A DNA stretch of 64,000 nt, from NCBI GenBank assembly GCA_020053595.1, contig JAGVMV010000024.1:29707-93706 (forward strand). The letters are read 5' to 3'. Positions 15,711 through 24,262 of the stretch are shown here, one piece after another (the stretch's first letter is position 1; every line of letters starts with the position of its first letter). The stretch comes from Thermoleophilia bacterium (GTDB lineage Bacteria > Actinomycetota > Thermoleophilia > BMS3ABIN01). The notes beneath the pieces were generated by a model. That model saw only the letters and a list, made by a program, of their open reading frames with translations, did no database searches and had not been told where the DNA came from. A program made the translations under genes and the position numbers.

Positions 15711-16462
15711 ACAGCCTGCGCCACGTCTTCGGGTTTTTCACCATTCTGCCGCTTTCGCGGGCGGGTACAATTGAAGACACCGCACGCGCCGGCTATCTGC
15801 TGCCCCTGGTCGCGGCGGTGCTCGGCGGCATCGAAGGCCTGGCCGGCTGGGGTTGCGAGCGGCTTTTCGGCCAACCGGTCGCTGCCGCCGCCATTCTGGC
15901 CATGGCGCTCCTGCTCACCGGTTTTCATCACTCGGACGGGCTTGCCGATTTTGGTGACGCCGTCATGATTCACGGTGACGCCGCTCGCCGCATCGAGGTT
16001 CTCAAGGACAGGACCATGGGCATAGGCGCTACCGGCGCCGTATTTCTGACCTGGCTCATCTCCTGGGCCGCGCTCTTGCAGCTGCTCAGCTCCTCCGGTC
16101 AGGGGGTTCGCATCGTCTGGAGCCTGATGGCCGTGGAAATTTCGGCGCGCCTGAGCATGCTCATGGTTACTGCTGTCAGTGTGCCCTCCCACGAAGGCAG
16201 CGGCAGCGTCTTCCTCGCGAACCTGAAGGGCTGGCGAAGCATTCTGGGAATCGTCCTGTCAGCCTGCGGTCTTGCGGCACTGGCCCTGGCTTTGCCGTTG
16301 GCCGGTATAATCACGGCGGGCACTGCCGCGGTTTTCACGGGATTGATTCTGGCGGCGGCGGGCAGACACTGGTTTGGCGGCGCTGGTGGAGACTTGATGG
16401 GAGCAGCGGTGGAGCTGGGGAGGATGGCGGCACTGCTGGGCCTGGTGGCGACCCTGCTATAA
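15707..16462 (+). CDS. cobS: Adenosylcobinamide-GDP ribazoletransferase (cobalamin synthase) CobS
   Basis: Multi-TM protein with HHSDGLADFGD motif of CobS. Confidence 0.85.
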   Translation: MNSLRHVFGFFTILPLSRAGTIEDTARAGYLLPLVAAVLGGIEGLAGWGCERLFGQPVAAAAILAMALLLTGFHHSDGLADFGDAVMIHGDAARRIEVLKDRTMGIGATGAVFLTWLISWAALLQLLSSSGQGVRIVWSLMAVEISARLSMLMVTAVSVPSHEGSGSVFLANLKGWRSILGIVLSACGLAALALALPLAGIITAGTAAVFTGLILAAAGRHWFGGAGGDLMGAAVELGRMAALLGLVATLL

Positions 16463-18823
16463 CAAGTTCCTGTCGCTGGTTGTTTCCGTACTAGCTGTCG
16501 TATCAGTTTCCGCTGTCGTTTCCGCATCGGCTGTCGTTTCAGCCCCTGCTTCCGGAATGTTACCGACACTGGCCGGATCCATACTTGCGGTTTCCCTGAT
16601 AACTTCTTCCGCGCCCGGCAACTCACAGGTATGGATTGCCACAGCCAGCTGATTGGCGACACTCATAATCGTCTCGATCGTCGCTGGTGTGAACGGCCGC
16701 TTGTCAGGCCAGACCAAGGCCATGCCCCCGACTACTTTTTCCTTGTAAATAATAGGCAGCGTGCAGCGGCGGTTGTCGCCCACATTCAACGCCTTGAGGA
16801 TGTAAGCTTCGGACTCGGTCGCGTTGGAGAGATCGACCTCCTCGTGGGTGATCATGCGCCGCTCCAGAACGGCGCGGGTCAGCAGTGTGCCGCGGGACAT
16901 CGGCGAGAACTTGAACTCGTCCATGACCTTTGGTGAATGTCCCATGAAGGCCAGGTTAACCAGGCCGTCCAGCTCTTCGTCCAGATAATAGACGCTGGCG
17001 CGAAAGCAGCCCATCTGTTCATAGACCGCTTCCATGGCGCTGCTGGCGATCTTTCTGATATCATGCGACCCGGCGCAGGCGGCTGCCACGTCCCGAAGCA
17101 TCGCCACGCGGGCAAGCTCCTTCATGGTCTTTTCGTGCAGGACCGAGTTCTGCACCGCCATCGACGCCCGGTCGGCCAGAACCTGGATCAGTCCCCACTC
17201 GCGGGCCGAAAAAGCCTTTTCCCGCTGGCTGCCGATCTGCAGTACGCCGGAGACCCTGCCGCCTACTCTCAACGGCACGGCCAGCACCGACCTGATACCC
17301 GAGCTCTCGGTAAAAAGAGAAAAATCACGTGACTCCGGGTCGTTTTGCAGATTGTCGACCTTCATCGGCACACCGTCCTGGAACGCGCGCCCTGCCAGTC
17401 CTTCACCGATCCCGACCCGGATATCCGCCAGTGGCGTCGCCAGGTTACCGGCCGCAGCCCGGGCCACCAGTTCGCTGCCGGTTTCGTCGGCCAGCAGGAT
17501 CATGGCGGCGTCCATCTGCATGACATCCTGGGCCCGCGTCACCAGCTCGATCAGGACCTCCTCGAGGTCGAGTGAGACCAGCCCGGCCTCGGAGATCGCC
17601 TCGATGGCCTCCAGCGACTTGCGTATGTAATGCTCGTTCTCATAGATGCCGGCGTTCTCGATCGCCAATGCCGCGTGTGAGCCGATGATCATGGCGAATT
17701 TGATCTGCTCCTCGGTGAACTTGCGCATCTTGTCGGTCTGGACGAGCCAGACGACGCCGATTGACCGGTTAGAGGAAACGAGCGGCACCATCAGCAACGA
17801 TCTGACTTTCAGGCTTCTGAGCAACTCCGGACTGAAGCGCATATCCTCGGCCGGGTTTTCCGAAGCAATGGCCTCCTTGCTTTCCAGGGCGGCGACACTG
17901 ACCGGTATGTCGTCATAAGGGAAACGCAGCTGTTGGATCATCTCGTCGGAATACTGGCCGTAACCTGTCTTGCCTACCCACTGGTCGTCCTCGAGCAGGA
18001 GAAGGGCACCGGCATCCGTACCGGAAGTAAAGACCATGTTGTCGAGCACTACTCGCAATGTTTCGTCCAGGCTGAGGCTCGACATGACCGCGGCGCTGAT
18101 CCTGAGAGCCGCCTCGCGTGTGCGTCCACGGATTACCGAATCGGTGATGTCGTAAGCGAAGAGCGCCACGGAGCGCGGCGTTCCCCCTCCCTGAGTGGAG
18201 ACCGGGATAAAGTTTATTTGCCAGAAGCTGCCGCGTCCTTCTTCACCGGGCAGATGGAATTCGTCCGAGTCGACACGTGCCCTGGTAGCGATGGCCTCGT
18301 CCATTTTGCCGGCCATTTTGCCGGCGTTTTCTTCAGATAACAAATCGGATAGCCTGGCGCCCGGTTTGCAGTTGTTGTTGGCAATCCTCGTGAAAGTCTG
18401 GTTGAAGTTAGCCAGTTTGTATCCAGGGAAACTGAACTCGGCGTAGGCGAGGGGAGATTCTTCGAGGGCATCCCGAATCAGGTTTATCCGTCTGAAATAA
18501 CGGTGGATAAAGTTAGCCTTGATGGCGACCAGAACGCCGAAAGCGCCGACCGCGGCAGAACTCCAGAGATTGACATCGGAGTCACCGCCGACCACGGTCG
18601 CCGCACAGATGATCATCGCCACCAGGCCAACCATAACAGTCTCCAGCGGGCTTAAGAGGTAAGCCGCGGTGATTATTGGGACGGCCCAGGCCAGGTTGAT
18701 CCAGGGTAAGTCATCCATCAGTAATTCGTCCAGGAGGCCGACGATTGCCAGCAGGACGCCCACGATCAGGATCAGGACCAGATGGCGTCCCGGGAACTGT
18801 TTTGGCAGGCGAGGAACATTCAT
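16457..18823 (-). CDS. Membrane-anchored PAS/triple-GAF sensor protein with no recognisable output domain. The ATG at 18823 follows an AAGGAAAA RBS.
   Basis: N-terminal TM helices, a PAS-like segment (FWQINFIPV...AYDITDS), then three GAF-like repeats. No HisKA/HATPase, GGDEF, EAL or HD-GYP motifs are seen. The C-terminus is a Thr/Ala/Glu low-complexity tail. Confidence 0.75.
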   Translation of the reverse strand: MNVPRLPKQFPGRHLVLILIVGVLLAIVGLLDELLMDDLPWINLAWAVPIITAAYLLSPLETVMVGLVAMIICAATVVGGDSDVNLWSSAAVGAFGVLVAIKANFIHRYFRRINLIRDALEESPLAYAEFSFPGYKLANFNQTFTRIANNNCKPGARLSDLLSEENAGKMAGKMDEAIATRARVDSDEFHLPGEEGRGSFWQINFIPVSTQGGGTPRSVALFAYDITDSVIRGRTREAALRISAAVMSSLSLDETLRVVLDNMVFTSGTDAGALLLLEDDQWVGKTGYGQYSDEMIQQLRFPYDDIPVSVAALESKEAIASENPAEDMRFSPELLRSLKVRSLLMVPLVSSNRSIGVVWLVQTDKMRKFTEEQIKFAMIIGSHAALAIENAGIYENEHYIRKSLEAIEAISEAGLVSLDLEEVLIELVTRAQDVMQMDAAMILLADETGSELVARAAAGNLATPLADIRVGIGEGLAGRAFQDGVPMKVDNLQNDPESRDFSLFTESSGIRSVLAVPLRVGGRVSGVLQIGSQREKAFSAREWGLIQVLADRASMAVQNSVLHEKTMKELARVAMLRDVAAACAGSHDIRKIASSAMEAVYEQMGCFRASVYYLDEELDGLVNLAFMGHSPKVMDEFKFSPMSRGTLLTRAVLERRMITHEEVDLSNATESEAYILKALNVGDNRRCTLPIIYKEKVVGGMALVWPDKRPFTPATIETIMSVANQLAVAIHTCELPGAEEVIRETASMDPASVGNIPEAGAETTADAETTAETDTTASTETTSDRNLL

Positions 18824-19047
18824 GATTAATTTTTCCTTGCGCAGAGATAGGTGAGGCGCAAAATGCCCCCCGGCAAATTGATGATAGATATGGATTATAT
18901 GGCAAACGGGCTGTAAGTTCACCTCTGGCGGCTTAATCTTTCTTAATGCCGCCCTGCTTTGGATAAGTCCACACCTGGGTATTATAAATAAAGGACGCCA
19001 AGGCGATAAAACAGGGTCGTCCTCAATACTTCAAAGGAGACAATTTC

Positions 19048-19605
19048 ATGGCAGATGACAGCAGGTCTGGTCCGTTTGCAGGAAGTGCGGGAAAATTTAT
19101 TGGAACAGCAGGAAGGCCGGGGTTTGCAAAGCGATTTGTAGCCATAATCGCGGCTTTAGCAGGGGTCTTGCTGACGCTGGCTATAATCGCCGGCTGCGAC
19201 GGCGATCAAAAAACCGATACAGCAACGGCGCCAGCCGGCCAAAAAACAGAGGCGGCGATAGCCCTGCCGGCCGACTCGGGTGGCCGAATGCAGATCGCTG
19301 AGACCAGCTACGACTTTGGCAGTGTCCCGGTGGATCAGAAAGTCGAACACTCGTTTGCCATCAAAAACACCGGTAGTGGTCCTCTCAGTCTGGGCCGGCT
19401 CGACGTCAAGCGACTGGAAGGCTGCTGAGACGCTCAGGCGGTCGTGGGTTCCACGACTATCGAACCGGGCGAAAGCACGACGGTCACCGTTTCCATGCAT
19501 ATGGGCAAGGGCATGGGAGGCCAGCATCTCTTCGAGGTGACGATCAACTCCAACGATCCCTCTCCAGCCGTCAGCAAGGTGTCGGTGAGGGCGAACTATA
19601 TTTAA
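19048..19605 (+). CDS. DUF1573 lipoprotein interrupted by an in-frame TGA (19426-19428) inside the conserved Cys motif. Either a putative selenoprotein (Sec) or a pseudogene.
   Basis: Strong AAAGGAGA RBS. Signal peptide with lipobox LAIIAG-C. DUF1573-like sequence: ...YDFGSVPVDQKVEHSFAIKNTGSGPLSLGRLDVKRLEGC-TGA-DAQAVVGSTTIEPGESTTVTVSM...EVTINSNDP. A hairpin GUCGUGG-GUU-CCACGAC begins 11 nt after the TGA. Confidence 0.55.
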
Positions 19606-19608
19606 TTC

Positions 19609-21030
19609 ATGACTGATCAGACAAATGAAGCGGCTGCCGGCCAGGCGGGTCCGGCAAGCCTCAAGCTGCGGCTGCCGGGCATAGATCCTCTGCTGCGATG
19701 GCGTTTTTATCCAGGGCTATTCCACTGGCTGTTCTACGCCGCCCTTGTGGCCCTGATTTACTTTGCCTTCGCGCCCGGCCAGCGCGGCGAAGGCAACCTG
19801 GCAACCGAGGTTGTCTGGCGCCTCTGGTGGCCGGGGCTGGGGTTCCTGCTGCTCTTCGGCGGCAGGATCTGGTGCGGTGTCTGCCCATTCGGCGGTGTCG
19901 CCGATCTGGCTGGCAGGATCATGAAGGAGCGACCGGCTCCCCCGGGTGTTTTCCGCCGCCTTGGCCCCTGGTTGGGGGTGGCATCGGTGTTTACTTTTGG
20001 CCTGGCCTTTCTGGCGCTCGGGCTCGAAGGAAACGCGGGCGCCACCGGGATCATTCTCATCGGCATGACCTTCCTGGCCTTCGGGCTGTCGCTGGCTTTT
20101 CGCGGTCGGACATTTTGCCGCTATCTTTGTCCCGTAGGGCTGATCACTCGGGTCTATTCTTTTTTCTCCTGGCTGAGGCCTCATGGCAGCACACGGATGC
20201 AGGGCGCCATGGCGGTCTGTCCGGTAGGGCAGTCGCCCGCGAGCCTGAGGCAGCCGAGCCAGTGCCAGATGTGTGGCGTCTGCACTCACGATCCTGGCGT
20301 GCGCGGCATCACCACAACAGTGACACCGGTTTCGCCGCGGCTGCCCGGTCTCCAGGAGTTCGGGCGCACCGAGGGCGTGCTGTCGTTACTGCTTCTGGGT
20401 CTGATGGCCGCCGATTCGGTGCGTATGACCCAGCTATTCGCCCGCTACCAGCAATTCGCACTTCCCTACCTGGGTTACAACTACCGGTTGACCGTCGTCC
20501 TGGGCGTGTCGGGTCTGGTGGGCACGATCCTCCTGTTGCAGCTTTGCGTGGCGCGATTACTGGGCGGGCGCGTGCAGGTTGCGGGCGCTGCTGGTACAGG
20601 TGTAGCCAGTGCTGCTACAGGCGCTGCCGTTGCTGGAGATAACACAGGTGTCAAAAACTCGTCCGCCGGCAAAGCATTATCATCGAGCTTCAACTCCATG
20701 GCCTTCAGTATGTTGCCGTTGACCCTGGGAGTTTTCCTGTCACTGTCGCTGCAGCACTTGTGGTCGGGCGCCTGGCCGTCGCTGCAGACGGTGCTGCTGG
20801 AATCGCGGCTCATCGACTGGTCCGGCCACATGCCGCCGACCAACGTTTACTTCGTCAGTATCCCACTGAAGTTACTGCAACTGGCGTTGCTGGGGATGGG
20901 CCTGTACTTCTCCCTGGGGCTTGCCCGGAAAGATAAGAGGGCGGGAGCTCTTAGCCGCAGCGCCGTAGTGCTGGCCGCTTTCAGCGGTTTTGGATTCCTC
21001 TTTCTGCTGCCGATGAGCGGAGCGTGCTAA
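19609..21030 (+). CDS. Polyferredoxin-like integral membrane 4Fe-4S protein (NapH/MauN/FtrD-like)
   Basis: Multi-TM protein with WCGVCPFG and FCRYLCPVG CxxCP ferredoxin motifs, plus a third CQMCGVC cluster. Translationally coupled to the upstream gene. Confidence 0.7.
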   Translation: MTDQTNEAAAGQAGPASLKLRLPGIDPLLRWRFYPGLFHWLFYAALVALIYFAFAPGQRGEGNLATEVVWRLWWPGLGFLLLFGGRIWCGVCPFGGVADLAGRIMKERPAPPGVFRRLGPWLGVASVFTFGLAFLALGLEGNAGATGIILIGMTFLAFGLSLAFRGRTFCRYLCPVGLITRVYSFFSWLRPHGSTRMQGAMAVCPVGQSPASLRQPSQCQMCGVCTHDPGVRGITTTVTPVSPRLPGLQEFGRTEGVLSLLLLGLMAADSVRMTQLFARYQQFALPYLGYNYRLTVVLGVSGLVGTILLLQLCVARLLGGRVQVAGAAGTGVASAATGAAVAGDNTGVKNSSAGKALSSSFNSMAFSMLPLTLGVFLSLSLQHLWSGAWPSLQTVLLESRLIDWSGHMPPTNVYFVSIPLKLLQLALLGMGLYFSLGLARKDKRAGALSRSAVVLAAFSGFGFLFLLPMSGAC

Positions 21031-21034
21031 CCCG

Positions 21035-21469
21035 ATGAATGCCTGGACCAGAAGAGCAGGTGGCATGGTAGCGGTTCTGGCGATGCTGCTGATCGTCTTC
21101 TTTATTGCTGGTTGCGGCGACTCGACCGCCGGCAATGACCCGGCCTTCCCGGAGTTCGTCTACCGTTCCGAAGAGTCCCTGAACGGCTACCGGATTGCCG
21201 CCGCCAACCAGTCCATTCTGGAACATGTGCCCTGTTACTGTGGCTGTAAACAGGATCCTGAGAAATACCAGAACCTCAAGGACTGTTTCTACAATCGCCA
21301 GACCGGCGACTTTGACGAGCACGCCGCCGGGTGCACAACCTGTCTCGACGAGGCGATGGATATCGGCCAGTGGCAGGGGGAAGGATTGTCGGTGCTGGCT
21401 ATCCGGGAGAGGATCGACGCCAAGTATTCAGAACGCGGTGAGCCCACGGATACCCCGATGCCCGAGTAA
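21035..21469 (+). CDS. PCYCGC-motif lipoprotein of unknown function
   Basis: Signal peptide with lipobox FIAG-C. Conserved PCYCGC motif plus additional Cys residues (CTTC). Confidence 0.7.
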   Translation: MNAWTRRAGGMVAVLAMLLIVFFIAGCGDSTAGNDPAFPEFVYRSEESLNGYRIAAANQSILEHVPCYCGCKQDPEKYQNLKDCFYNRQTGDFDEHAAGCTTCLDEAMDIGQWQGEGLSVLAIRERIDAKYSERGEPTDTPMPE

Positions 21470-21472
21470 AAC

Positions 21473-21808
21473 TTAGCCTTTTCCCGCCCAGCGCCGCGAA
21501 AGACCGGACAGCCCCTCGCGCCAGAACACGCGCCAGAACTCAGTCTTCTGATAGCGGGCGTAGGCGGCCCGGCGGCCCGGGTCGGTGAGCACGTCGTGCG
21601 CCTCGTTGATCTCCTGCATCATCAGATTGGCCCACTGTTGCCGTTCCGCGGGATAAGCGTCGGGGTGGTACTTGCGCGCCAGCGCCCTGTAGGCGCGGTC
21701 GATCACTTCCCGTGAAGCTTCAGGGTGGACTTCGAGGATACGGTAATAATCTTTCAAAGCTGGCTGGTTTTTTGATCCATGTTTGCTTGAAGGTGGCGTC
21801 ACGGCCAT
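21473..21808 (-). CDS. J-domain (DnaJ-like) protein. The start is chosen at the Met preceding the J-domain; the ORF is open further upstream.
   Basis: DYYRILEVHPEASREVIDRAYRALARKYHPD is a J-domain with the HPD motif. Confidence 0.6.
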   Translation of the reverse strand: MAVTPPSSKHGSKNQPALKDYYRILEVHPEASREVIDRAYRALARKYHPDAYPAERQQWANLMMQEINEAHDVLTDPGRRAAYARYQKTEFWRVFWREGLSGLSRRWAGKG

Positions 21809-22041
21809 TTCCGGCTCAGCCAATGGTATCGCAAACACAGGAGGGTTCCAAACCAGGAGGGAAGTCATGCCATCAGTGCGCACAAATTTGAGCACGCCCT
21901 CTATGGCAGGTACTTGGCAAGCCTGCAAAGTTAGCCGGGTCGGCAAATCCGCTCGCAACTGCCGCTTCTGACCCGACACCACGTCCACGTCAACTGTAAT
22001 TCACAAACCTCTGCGCTTGCCACGCGCTCGTCTGGAGAGGA

Positions 22042-22515
22042 TTAAGCTGGAATCCTCTCACTTTGGGAATCAGAAAATTCCCATCCCTTGGAAGAGCCTG
22101 CCACGTAATTGATCTTATCCGATGCCAGATCGGCGAATGTCGTCGACTCCAGCCGGTCGATCAGTGTCTGCTGGATGCGATCCCAGATGGGGTAAACGGG
22201 ACAGAAACTTTCCCGGTCACATTCGCCTTTGTCCCGCAGGCAGTGGTTGAGCACTATCGGTTCCTCGATTGCCTCTATGACCTCACGCAGGTTGATCTTA
22301 TCCGGCGATCTGGCCAGCAGGACACCGCCCTGGTTGCCGCGGAGCGTCCTGACGAGGCCGGCGCGGGCCAGAGTGCGCATGATGGTGGGGAGATACTTCT
22401 CGGGGATTCCCTCACTGATCGCGATTTCCTTGGTCTGCACCACATTGCCAGTCTTTTCAGCCGACAGATGCAGCAATGCTCTAACCGCGTAATCAGCTTG
22501 TCTGGTAAGTTGCAT
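22042..22515 (-). CDS. Rrf2-family transcriptional regulator (IscR/NsrR-like, Cys-containing)
   Basis: N-terminal winged-helix YAVRALLHLS... sequence. Conserved cysteines (CLRDKGECDRESFCP) suggest Fe-S cluster ligation. Confidence 0.8.
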   Translation of the reverse strand: MQLTRQADYAVRALLHLSAEKTGNVVQTKEIAISEGIPEKYLPTIMRTLARAGLVRTLRGNQGGVLLARSPDKINLREVIEAIEEPIVLNHCLRDKGECDRESFCPVYPIWDRIQQTLIDRLESTTFADLASDKINYVAGSSKGWEFSDSQSERIPA

Positions 22516-22924
22516 TTGTCACCTCCTCGCACGAATAATTTTTTGCGCGGGCATCTACCAACGTTTTCAACCTTGTGCCGTAAACTTACGTAAGGAGCAT
22601 ATCCTCCCTGGGAACCCGCTACTATCGGGGAAAACCCCCATCTTTGTTATCGCAATAACTAATATTAGTGGGTCGGTTGTGTCTGTTTGAAGCAGGTTTA
22701 GGTACAAAATCACAATTTGCAGGCTAATTTTAATCAATAGCTAGTAGGGGTGAAATCTCAAGCATGTCGCGATTCCGAATCGAGCTGAAGTTTTTATCCT
22801 GATGGATAAAAGGCGGGACAGTGCAGGACAGTTCGGGACGATTGGGCTAAATGCCGCAGAGGACGATGCGGCGCAAAGTGGGACACCCTGGTGAGGCTCT
22901 CAATCCTCCTTGAGGAATGCTCGC

Positions 22925-24262
22925 TTACCACTTACGCTCGAGGTTCAAGAGCTCCCTGGTGTAGCCGACCACGCAGATCGGTGAGACGATGAACTGATAG
23001 ATCAGGAAATAGGCCAGGAAACCCAGTAGATTCCGGCGGATCTTCAGGCCCATGAGGTCGAAGACGCCCTTCTGGTAGCGCAGCATGATCAGCACGATCA
23101 AAGCGGTCAACGGCAGCACCAGCAGGGTCATCGCCCCGGCCAGGTAGAAGTAGCCGAAGCAGGCCAGTGCTACGCCAGGGAGAAAAGCCAGGGTAAAGAC
23201 CAGGTCCAGGGGCGGGAAGAGCAGGTCCATCGCCACAAAGAAGCTGGCGAACCGGCGTTGGCGCCAGACATTTCCCAGATGGCTGCGAAGAGCCTCGATC
23301 ATGCCGCGGGCCCAGCGCTGGCGCTGGCGGTAGAAACCGCGGAACGTATGGGGCACTCTGGTGAAGGCAATAGCGGTCGGTTCATGGACGATCTGATGGC
23401 CCTCACCGATCAGCGCCCAGGTGAGCACGATGTCCTCGCCGATGCGGTTCGGCCAGCCCCGGGCGGCGCGCACCACGCCGGTGCGGAAGGCGCTGAACGA
23501 GCCTTGCGCCACCAGCGTCCCCCGGTACATGCTCTGCTGGCGCTTGACGGCGCCGATGCCCAGGAAATAATCCCACTCCTGCAGCCGGGTAAAACTGGAT
23601 TCCCGCGAATTCTTGGCCAGCACCGAACCCGCCACGGCGGCGCAGTCAGGACTCTGCATCAGCCGGGCGACGATCCGGCGTAGCGCCTGTGGATGCAGGA
23701 AGGTGTCGGCGTCGATGGTTACCAGTATCCGGTGGGAAACCGCTTCCAGCCCGGCGTTCAGCGCCGCCGCCTTGCCCTGGTGGGGGATGGAGATGACTTC
23801 GAGGCAGGGCTTCCTCAGCGAACGCAGAAAATTGAGGGTCCCGTCGCTGGAGCCGTCGTCGACGACTATCACCTCAATCTCCGCCGGATAATCCTGACCC
23901 GCCAGGCCGCGGAAAGTCTCCGCCAGGTTCTCCTCTTCGTTATAGGCGGCCATGAGGATGGAAACGCCCGGAAACGTTCCCTCGAGACTGAGTTTCGGCT
24001 GACGGTAGGAAAGCAGGCTGAGCAGGAGGAAGATGTTCAGGTAGCCGGGGATGATGGCGATGAAGGCGACCAGGATGATGGCGCCGGGCAAGGTCAGCAG
24101 GTCATCAAGGTCGCCGACCCAGCGGGATGCCAGCAGGCTGGCGGCGCCAGCGCACATCAGCGCGCCGACGTTGGCGGCGATAAAGCGCGTTGCCATTCCC
24201 GAGCGGGGCAGCTCCGCGGCGAGCCCCTCACCGCCCAGGGCGGTTTTTGAATGAGTGTTCAA
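22925..24262 (-). CDS. Family 2 glycosyltransferase, processive synthase type (multi-TM; PgaC/cellulose-synthase-like)
   Basis: ILMAAYNEEENL...VVDDGSSDGT and DxD region, QxxRW-like RQRQRWARG, and flanking TM helices. Confidence 0.8.
   Translation of the reverse strand: MNTHSKTALGGEGLAAELPRSGMATRFIAANVGALMCAGAASLLASRWVGDLDDLLTLPGAIILVAFIAIIPGYLNIFLLLSLLSYRQPKLSLEGTFPGVSILMAAYNEEENLAETFRGLAGQDYPAEIEVIVVDDGSSDGTLNFLRSLRKPCLEVISIPHQGKAAALNAGLEAVSHRILVTIDADTFLHPQALRRIVARLMQSPDCAAVAGSVLAKNSRESSFTRLQEWDYFLGIGAVKRQQSMYRGTLVAQGSFSAFRTGVVRAARGWPNRIGEDIVLTWALIGEGHQIVHEPTAIAFTRVPHTFRGFYRQRQRWARGMIEALRSHLGNVWRQRRFASFFVAMDLLFPPLDLVFTLAFLPGVALACFGYFYLAGAMTLLVLPLTALIVLIMLRYQKGVFDLMGLKIRRNLLGFLAYFLIYQFIVSPICVVGYTRELLNLERKW

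Follow-up and report, generated by a model that had tools for sequence, protein, structure and literature searches.

We focused on a three-gene operon on the + strand of a Thermoleophilia bacterium contig (JAGVMV010000024.1), lying within a stretch of 64,000 nucleotides (nt) that is referred to as the window here. Its genes, g1, g2, and g3, encode an exported lipoprotein of the DUF1573 family with an in-frame TGA for selenocysteine (Sec), an integral-membrane polyferredoxin, and a second exported lipoprotein with a PCYCGC motif, which together may constitute a copper relay of the cell envelope. A preliminary description of this DNA had placed five open reading frames (ORFs) in the region, namely, the trio and two neighbors on the opposite strand, all of which are recovered in the ORF listing. 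It had also regarded the trio as a compact translational unit, and the intergenic gaps of 3 nt and 4 nt bear this out. The features of the operon are the following.

19034-19039, + strand: Shine-Dalgarno sequence AAGGAG, 8 nt before the ATG of g1, read from the sequence
19048-19605, + strand: g1, encoding a 185-amino-acid exported lipoprotein whose only interruption is the TGA (ORF listing and translation)
19195-19197, + strand: lipobox Cys of g1 (...LAIIAG-C50), read from the translation, with a hydrophobic segment at residues 30-48
19426-19428, + strand: in-frame TGA, read as Sec codon U127 in the motif E-G-C-U-D, giving a Cys126-Sec127 dyad
19440-19458, + strand: hairpin of the Sec insertion sequence (SECIS), GGUCGUGG-GUU-CCACGACU, 8 bp, beginning 11 nt past the UGA; centroid of the local fold
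19495-19527, + strand: Met/His loop of g1, M150-H-M-G-K-G-M-G-G-Q-H160, a conserved motif and candidate Cu(I) site
19609-21030, + strand: g2, encoding a 473-amino-acid integral-membrane polyferredoxin ("type A"), starting 3 nt past g1
19873-20283, + strand: Cys motifs of g2, C89xxC92P, C170xxxC174P, C204P, and C219xxC222xxC225, from a 20-sequence alignment
20824-20838, + strand: G406-H-M-P-P410 of g2, in a predicted outer-face loop; type A proteins never vary at G406 and P410 and hardly vary at H407, M408, and P409
21010-21027, + strand: C-terminal P468-M-S-G-A-C473 of g2, with a terminal Cys, on the predicted outer face
21035-21469, + strand: g3, encoding a 144-amino-acid exported PCYCGC (CYCXC) lipoprotein, starting 4 nt past g2
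21230-21247, + strand: P66-C-Y-C-G-C71 of g3, invariant in 32 sequences
21332-21343, + strand: C100-T-T-C103 of g3, invariant in the same 32 sequences; the first Cys is a Sec position in homologs

A selenocysteine codon in g1

The loci compared here come from a scan of a genome collection with an alignment of g2 homologs, which yielded 80 loci, and co-occurrence was counted around g2-like genes only. Homologs of g1 were collected by tblastn from the window and from 15 of these 80 loci (n = 16). In the window the codon stands in the context ...KRLEGC-TGA-DAQAVVGSTT..., and a TGA, never a TAA or TAG, is found at the identical alignment position in all 16 g1 loci. Two further loci fetched by protein identity, L081 and L083, share this position, giving a total of 18 distinct loci from two phyla. 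The tblastn alignments of the 16 loci show that protein conservation continues in frame past the TGA, and the consensus of the Sec form is (E/D)-G-C-U-(D/P/N), with the Met/His motif ∼23 residues further on.

When the 58 residues after the TGA were searched against 1.8 billion representatives, at least 17 full-length proteins of 137 to 185 amino acids with EGCCP at the Sec site were retrieved, showing that Cys takes the place of Sec in many relatives. The same search also returned orphan fragments of ∼54 to 61 amino acids. Cys stands at the Sec position (VGCCPP) in the fusion protein P0118 as well. One full-length family member, P0164, carries EGCWPP, i.e., a Trp at the Sec/Cys position, with the downstream loop kept, which indicates that the second chalcogen is not universal in the g1 family. 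Protein-database homologs of the Sec form all end at ...EGC, which shows that they were truncated by gene callers. Public gene calls cut the Sec form at the TGA into an N-terminal ORF of 89 to 126 amino acids and a 54-amino-acid ORF (split genes at L081 8544-8993, L083 8458-8949, and L085 8533-9000). Since this splitting is seen in every metagenome-assembled genome (MAG) examined, the family is systematically misannotated.

Each of the 16 loci has the SECIS hairpin in register with the others, with stem letters that differ by lineage (GUCGUGG/CCACGAC in Thermoleophilia versus ACCAUCG/CGAUGGU in Anaerolineae). Six of its eight pairs changed on both sides among these loci, and 93% of the cells are paired versus 23 to 68% in slid registers, values that were reached by none of 500 shuffles. 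The stem covaries despite altering the encoded residues (VVGSTT versus TIGSMV), and its apical loop GUU contains a G. An Rfam scan of positions 18000 to 23000 at E ≤ 10 gave chance-level matches only and no SECIS family, so that the element is established by comparative alignment. The 66-nt segment folded as a whole is no more stable than shuffles (z = -0.45), and only the local hairpin is meaningful.

The Sec codon that the preliminary description had put forward as a candidate is thus borne out by the conservation of the TGA, by the Cys homologs, and by the covarying hairpin. Comparative sequence evidence confirms the TGA at 19426 as a genuine Sec codon, far beyond chance, and g1 shows the features usually expected of a bacterial selenoprotein gene in such comparisons.

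The trio and its conservation

In Pfam profile searches the DUF1573, Fer4_5, and PCYCGC domains of the trio all scored above their cutoffs, in agreement with the domains first assigned. The DUF1573 model (PF07610) matches residues 82 to 180 of g1 with 45.5 bits (cutoff, 26.1), flanking the TGA on both sides, and the related Ig-like model PF22544 scores 48.3 bits, also across the TGA. In an alignment with the classical DUF1573 motif S-C-G-C-T, the first Cys corresponds to C126 of g1, with Sec directly after it. The protein is anchored as a lipoprotein in Thermoleophilia and by an N-terminal membrane anchor in Anaerolineae. The loop motif M-[HGQN]-x-G-M-x-G-x-H is retained in all 18 Sec-form loci, and MH(E/Q/P)GMGGxH or a close variant occurs in most Cys-form homologs, with P0118 devoid of the Met residues. 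This Met/His loop may serve as a metal ligand. A Dehalococcoidia homolog of g1 (L006 3573-4445) contains two tandem DUF1573 domains, the first with "GCD" (a single Cys) and the second with "GCU".

The polyferredoxin g2 matches Fer4_5 twice, with 44 bits against a cutoff of 22, and its AlphaFold2 model (predicted local distance difference test [pLDDT] score, 77; predicted template modeling [TM] score, 0.79) has ∼9 membrane helices. No significant match was found when this model was compared to the Protein Data Bank (PDB) with Foldseek, and a PDB sequence search with g2 retrieved nothing. In the alignment of 20 sequences, six Cys residues (C170, C174, C204, C219, C222, and C225) never vary and two more (C89 and C92) are conserved in at least 90%; the motifs are present in distant relatives, too. 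Eight conserved Cys residues are enough for two [4Fe-4S] clusters, which are therefore predicted for g2. Of the two CxxCP motifs named in the preliminary description, the first stands and the second is actually CxxxCP (C170-x3-C174-P). The NapH/MauN likeness named there is limited to the Fer4_5 domain, with g2 reaching 23 bits against a cutoff of 213 (TIGR02163), and electron transfer across the membrane in that style is not supported by this comparison. The C-terminal PMSxxC-COOH is kept in type A, and further conserved motifs are D269-S-x-R-M-T and Q382-H-L. The topology suggested by the model would put the N terminus and the eight Fe-S Cys residues on the cytoplasmic side and the His/Met/Cys motifs and the terminal Cys outside. 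About 35 close homologs of g2 were found, 51 to 93% identical and mostly from Thermoleophilia MAGs, along with a few at 32 to 37%.

For g3, for which 84 homologs were found, the PCYCGC model PF13798 scores 75.9 bits (cutoff, 25), and all invariant residues of the family are present (Y52, P66-C-Y-C-G-C71, C84, H96, C100, and C103). A lipobox (...FFIAG-C27) is readable in the sequence, at the end of a hydrophobic N terminus. A Caldilineaceae homolog at L050 has a TGA (2328-2330) at the equivalent of C100, followed by a 7-bp hairpin, which marks C100xxC103 as the reactive center. At this locus both small proteins are selenoproteins, the DUF1573 homolog having the usual GCU. In its AlphaFold2 model (pLDDT, 88) g3 is all helical over residues 40 to 131. 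The best PDB matches of this model in Foldseek are periplasmic domains of CcmH (2kw0 and 2hl7; E = 1.1 to 2.1, target-normalized TM scores of 0.54 to 0.55), hhalign aligns 25 residues of g3 with Escherichia coli CcmH (probability, 47%; P = 1.9e-4), and in protein P0114 PCYCGC is fused to a CcmH-like domain (E = 0.0024 against 2kw0). A profile and sequence search of the PDB with g3 gave noise only and no CcmH. These weak hints make the likeness to CcmH a lead rather than a finding.

The three genes are adjacent, with gaps of at most 4 nt, in the window and at L001 to L004, L006, L007, L081, and L083. These loci belong to Actinomycetota (the window, L001, L002 [which equals L085], L003, L004, L081, and L083) and to Chloroflexota (L006 and L007); the gene order at L007 is g2-g3-g1. 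At L005 a contig end cuts the sequence upstream of g2, and no g3 lies downstream. L003, from Thermoleophilia MAG 5_8_m_bin1, represents in essence the locus of the window, with a g2 that is 93% identical. Together with L004 it shows that one MAG (JAENWV01) can hold two copies of the trio, on different contigs and with g2 proteins ∼53% identical; an additional PCYCGC paralog lies just 3' of the trio at L004 (5495-6034). In at least eight Anaerolineae loci, g3-like and g1-like genes are found within ∼6 kb of a g2-like gene. The preliminary description had stated that the module would be in doubt if its homologs never co-occurred elsewhere; in fact, the three families co-occur repeatedly across two phyla.

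Fusion proteins connect the two lipoprotein families directly. PCYCGC precedes DUF1573 in P0118, P0119, and P0122, and the order is reversed in P0117; since P0119 and P0122 end at ...VGC, they are Sec forms. Fusions of g1 and g3 in both orders are independent evidence of their joint action. Judged by the genomes compared here, g1-g2-g3 is a conserved autonomous unit.

Copper genes around the homologs and a possible relay

The 80 loci of the g2 superfamily consist of type A (g2 proper) and a much larger type B, whose members are 22 to 25% identical to g2 over the full length and carry the motifs QNxTML, HxAHNLFH, and a C-terminal LPMxHRM. GHMPP is missing from type B, which has LPM(A/S)(H/M)R(M/V)-COOH in place of the C terminus of type A. 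Type B is found in Bacillaceae, Planktophila and other Actinomycetota, Desulfotomaculia, and Anaerolineae, and an NCBIfam search with the type B and accessory proteins returned no curated family that names any of them. Among the 80 loci, a P-type ATPase of the copper-pump kind described below is found within 8 kb in 21 cases, a YHS protein in 14, a cupredoxin in 16, and a YtkA-like protein in 23, and 31 of the 80 have at least one copper-linked neighbor (ATPase, YHS, or cupredoxin). Tight polyferredoxin-cupredoxin-ATPase operons are seen in Planktophila. In Planktophila, Bacillaceae, and other taxa, type B shares operons with a cupredoxin and a P1B-1 Cu ATPase (e.g., L013 7935-11820), and more loci of this kind are L030, L064, L067, L018, L036, L065, and L079.

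In Anaerolineae, the type B gene stands at the head of a conserved array that also includes PCYCGC and Sec-DUF1573 proteins, with the following genes.

Array, + strand: LuxR-type response regulator, histidine kinase, Met-rich YtkA-like protein, polyferredoxin
Array, + strand: small YHS protein with a His-rich tail (some loci), PCYCGC protein
Array, + strand: membrane-anchored cupredoxin with the CuA-type motif C-x3-C-x3-H-x2-M (CNVTCGAMHPFM)
Array, + strand: second polyferredoxin (some loci), cupredoxin-cytochrome c fusion, Sec-DUF1573 protein

At four Anaerolineae loci, genes for a YHS+HMA P-type ATPase and for another cupredoxin come before the array. This ATPase carries CPC, YN, and MxxSS, which we take to be the signature of a Cu(I)/Ag(I) P1B-1 pump. 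The cupredoxin part of the cupredoxin-cytochrome c fusion is without a Cys ligand, and four notable proteins of these islands are encoded at L047 10050-10508, L057 9823-10929 and 7179-7901, and L012 9418-9654. Upstream of the type A trio of Dehalococcoidia (L006) lie a YHS gene and, directly adjoining the trio, lgt and a gene for a DsbD_2-family permease; the latter was considered as a CcdA and then downgraded, its best match being an ArsG-like permease, below the cutoff.

An extracytoplasmic thiol/selenol or Cu/Fe relay, as suggested in the preliminary description, was the right kind of idea, and the new evidence points to copper. Met/His motifs like those in g1 and g2 serve Cu(I) in CopC, CusF, and PCuAC-type sites. 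We propose, with belief and doubt about evenly balanced, that g1-g2-g3 is an envelope redox and chaperone relay for copper, resembling a split version of the CcoG system that faces outward. In such a relay, g2 would combine a cytoplasmic Fe-S redox module with an outer-face His/Met/Cys site (DSxRMT, QHL, GHMPP, and PMSGAC). The Cys-Sec pair and the MHxGMGGxH loop of g1, a lipid-anchored Ig-like protein of the outer face, would hold a soft metal, proposed to be Cu(I). The CxxC and PCYCGC Cys residues of g3 could either exchange metal with g1 and g2 or re-reduce a Cys-Sec selenenylsulfide. By coupling cytoplasmic reducing power to the outer site, g2 would maintain copper in the Cu(I) state, the selenol and thiols in reduced form, or both, and the copper would then be sequestered or handed on, for detoxification or cuproenzyme supply. 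The sequences themselves establish that the three genes form an operon, that g1 has the signals for Sec decoding, that the trio is conserved, that g1 and g3 occur as fusions, and that homologs lie among copper genes. We infer the topology, copper as the ligand, the way in which electrons and metal would flow, and whether the relay serves detoxification or supply.

Several observations weigh against a copper relay of this design. Within 8 kb of the trio, copper genes are found neither in the window nor at any other Thermoleophilia locus, so that copper is assigned here by homology and association, through the Chloroflexota relatives and the wider g2 superfamily. The polyferredoxins of the Anaerolineae islands are type B, only 22 to 25% identical to g2 and with different outer-face motifs. 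For the passage of electrons across the membrane, g2 offers no evident heme or quinone site, and its topology is our own reading of the positive-inside rule on the AlphaFold2 helix map. Moreover, g2 has no match to the ccoG model or to FixG_C at E ≤ 0.01 and no Ig domain of its own. The 64-kb window contains none of selA, selB, selD, or tRNA-Sec according to the tRNA scan and the Pfam and ORF scans.

A serious rival, although an unlikely one in our estimate, is a thiol/selenol-disulfide reductase relay outside the cytoplasm that has no metal cargo. Here, g2 would feed g3 (through its CxxC, in the manner of CcmH) and g1 (through a Cys-Sec selenenylsulfide, cf. the GCU of thioredoxin reductase), and the targets would be envelope disulfides, e.g., those of apocytochrome c or CuA apoproteins during maturation. 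Such a function would suit the Sec and Cys positions, which fall within well-known redox motifs (C-U for g1, CxxC/UxxC for g3), the CcmH domains among the best fold matches of g3 and the 25-residue hhalign alignment (47% probability), the CcmH-like fusion P0114, the DsbD_2-family membrane protein adjoining the L006 trio, and the cytochrome c and CuA-type genes in the Anaerolineae operons. However, the CcmH similarities are individually nonsignificant (Foldseek E, ∼1 to 2), the DsbD_2 protein has its best score as an ArsG-like permease, below the cutoff, and pure thiol chemistry leaves no role for the invariant Met/His loop in g1 or for the His/Met motifs in g2. Neither a thioredoxin-fold partner nor cytochrome c maturation genes accompany the Thermoleophilia trio. 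Thiol/selenol chemistry and the copper relay overlap in part, as the reduction of Cys residues at CuA and other Cu sites is itself copper biology.

We consider it improbable that the cargo is not copper but a different soft metal or a metalloid (Hg, Ag, As, or Se/Te species) captured by the Cys-Sec dyad. Vicinal Cys pairs bind mercury in MerA and MerT. A CU dipeptide is found in the MerB-like SaoL, connected with mercury/organometal binding (bioRxiv 10.1101/2022.07.06.499078), several of the catalogued bacterial selenoproteins are related to Hg or As (PMC13188914), an ArsG-like permease adjoins the L006 trio, and P1B-1 pumps export Ag(I) too (PMC7558416). However, no mer or ars operon genes were present at any locus examined, and the companions of the family are those typical of copper, namely, YHS proteins, cupredoxins, the CuA motif, and Met-rich proteins.

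Less probable still is a wider module that would include the two neighbors of the trio, in which the Rrf2 protein (as an Fe-S sensor) and the J-domain protein (as a cochaperone) would control or mature the system.

21473-21988, - strand: small J-domain ORF (Pfam DnaJ, 66 bits), with 3 nt between its stop codon and the converging stop of g3
22042-22515, - strand: Rrf2-family regulator (Pfam Rrf2, 127.6 bits; cutoff, 30), with clustered C92/C99/C105 read from the sequence

Since a 94-amino-acid product is called at L081, the real start of the J-domain ORF is probably internal. A wider module would explain the close abutment of the converging genes, the same arrangement at L001, L003, and L081, and the three-Cys cluster motif of the Rrf2 protein next to a g2 that needs Fe-S clusters. 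In contrast to this idea, the preliminary version of which counted both genes as members, the pair accompanies the trio in 4 of 9 distinct type A loci (the window, L001, L003, and L081), all of them close Thermoleophilia relatives, and is absent from the other 5. The neighbors of the trio are unrelated at L083, L002/L085, L004, L006, and L007, both genes lie on the strand opposite to the trio, and no operator or motif common to the upstream regions of g1 and rrf2 was found. A match at L007 that seemed to extend the conservation of the J-domain gene to Chloroflexota was rejected as a canonical full-length DnaJ. By their genomic distribution, the J-domain and Rrf2 genes are neighbors rather than parts of the system. 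As for a true stop at the TGA, with g1 as a truncated or split gene or a sequencing artifact and only g2 and g3 functional, the split public annotation (89 to 126 plus 54 amino acids) and the absence of Sec machinery from the 64-kb window would fit it, but it is hardly credible given that all 18 Sec-form loci have TGA and never TAA or TAG, that in-frame conservation continues with a Pfam domain bridging the codon, and that many homologs have Cys at the site and the downstream hairpin covaries.

The wider surroundings do not travel with the trio. L081 is syntenic with the window (cobalamin genes, GAF, trio, DnaJ-like, Rrf2, GT2, and nrd), and the flanks elsewhere are cupins and an Na/H exchanger (L083) or ribosomal, trmD, and ffh genes (L085). 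Because these flanks are unrelated, the position of the trio between the cobalamin locus and nrdJ is coincidental, as had already been suspected. Divergent from g1 runs a gene for an 821-amino-acid protein (16457-18922, - strand) that combines three GAF domains and one PAS domain with membrane segments at its N terminus; this gene is syntenic in L081/L082 and not found in L083 or L085. The 125-bp gap between this gene and g1 contains an inverted repeat, GGCGGC-N15-GCCGCC, around a TTAAT direct repeat (18926-18952), which could be an operator or a leader structure. The plausible promoter of the preliminary description was not recovered by a sigma-70 consensus scan upstream of g1, and a scan 3' of g3 found no terminator. 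Elsewhere in the window lie housekeeping genes (cobalamin synthesis, GAF/PAS, a GT2 glycosyltransferase, nrdJ, aromatic amino acid genes, PolA, S1, and UvrB) and no tRNA, and Pfam searches with 20 other ORFs of the window identified no Sec machinery and no copper genes.

Relation to known systems

The families of g1 and g3 are already catalogued as (seleno)protein families, OS_HP2/DUF1573 and OS_HP4/CYCXC, respectively. OS_HP2 was named in a study of Olavius symbionts by Zhang and Gladyshev in 2007 (PMC1976440), and DUF1573 (UGC) and CYCXC/PF13798 (UxxC) are included in selenoproteome reviews of 2022 and 2026, with no function given (PMC9312934 and PMC13188914). One lipoproteome paper mentions a PCYCGC lipoprotein, function not described, next to an Fe3+-binding protein (PMC13068155). 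The literature that we searched in full text offered catalogue entries only; none of it describes the trio, and DUF1573/OS_HP2 and PCYCGC are connected there neither with one another nor with a polyferredoxin or copper. The components are of familiar kinds, and what appears to be new is the placement of Sec as C-U in g1, the type A polyferredoxin, the conserved trio with its fusions, and the copper context. Two families that have stood in catalogues without a function since 2007-2008 gain a testable idea and a set of partners from the trio, its fusions, and the copper islands.

Like OS_HP2, g1 is an exported protein of the Ig-like DUF1573 fold family with Sec in the region of the Cys motif. 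In OS_HP2, however, Sec takes the place of the first Cys of CGC, while in g1 it follows one residue after that Cys, and the subfamily of g1 has the additional MHxGMGGxH loop. The OS_HP2 model NF041425 scores 48.5 bits, under its cutoff of 100, and the motif of g1 is GCU, not UGC. Reviews give U-G-C as the motif of DUF1573 selenoproteins (PMC9312934 and PMC13188914), and the C-U of g1 therefore represents a different placement of Sec and a distinct subfamily. A Cys-Sec dyad on an exported lipoprotein of Actinomycetota is unusual, and if it binds Cu(I), selenium would be put to a new use in metal trafficking. As to g3, the equivalog NF041379 (CYCXC/OS_HP4) scores 65.7 bits, under its cutoff of 90, and neither a function nor a partner is described for this family. 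The L050 homolog, with Sec at the first Cys of CxxC, corresponds to the published UxxC form of OS_HP4 (PMC13188914), and g3 differs from it as an all-Cys form.

With NapH, MauN, NosR, and NosH, g2 shares Fer4_5 motifs of the CxxCP type between helices and a ferredoxin-like CxxCxxC...CP segment. It differs from them in its added C-terminal membrane domain and in the absence of nap, mau, or nos genes nearby, the window having neither nap nor mau genes, and it scores 15.8 against a cutoff of 1000 for NosR. For the small proteins, a working analogy is offered by periplasmic Cu(I) chaperones of the beta-sandwich kind (PCuAC, CopC, CusF, and YcnI) and by thiol-based proteins (Sco/TlpA and CcmH), which are likewise small and envelope tethered and use Met/His or Cys for Cu(I) or thiol reduction. 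Unlike true members, g1 and g3 do not belong to these families by sequence, the sole signal being the weak CcmH-like one in g3. We know of no PCuAC, CopC, CusF, YcnI, Sco/TlpA, or CcmH protein that uses Sec.

The closest characterized parallel is CcoG (FixG/RdxA). This membrane protein carries two [4Fe-4S] clusters and copper sites along with a periplasmic Ig-like domain to which no role is assigned; it reduces Cu(II) specifically and has a genetic link to a Cu ATPase, and YccM and other shorter CcoG homologs lack the Ig domain (PMC7558416). The Fer4_5 membrane domain of g2, with Cys residues for two predicted [4Fe-4S] clusters, resembles that of CcoG, the wider g2 family is associated with P1B Cu ATPases, and the Ig-like domain found within CcoG has a counterpart here in the separate protein g1. 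On the other hand, the C-terminal half of g2, made up of five helices and bearing GHMPP and PMSGAC, is distinct, g2 lacks a ccoNOQP/ccoHIS context, and a selenoprotein and a PCYCGC protein are not known as partners of CcoG. The large unnamed family of membrane polyferredoxins that Bacillota, Actinomycetota, and Chloroflexota encode beside Cu(I) ATPases may correspond to CcoG where a cbb3 oxidase is lacking. More tentatively, and with our doubts outweighing our confidence, the trio could be an unrecognized selenium-dependent copper relay of monoderm and Chloroflexota envelopes, in which g1 would be the first selenolate (Cys-Sec) copper chaperone, served by a new class of membrane Fe-S proteins (g2 together with type B beside CopA pumps) that couples cytoplasmic electrons to a His/Met/Cys metal site on the outer face. 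If so, the selenium copper relay would carry the cupric-reduction paradigm of CcoG to the exterior of the membrane.

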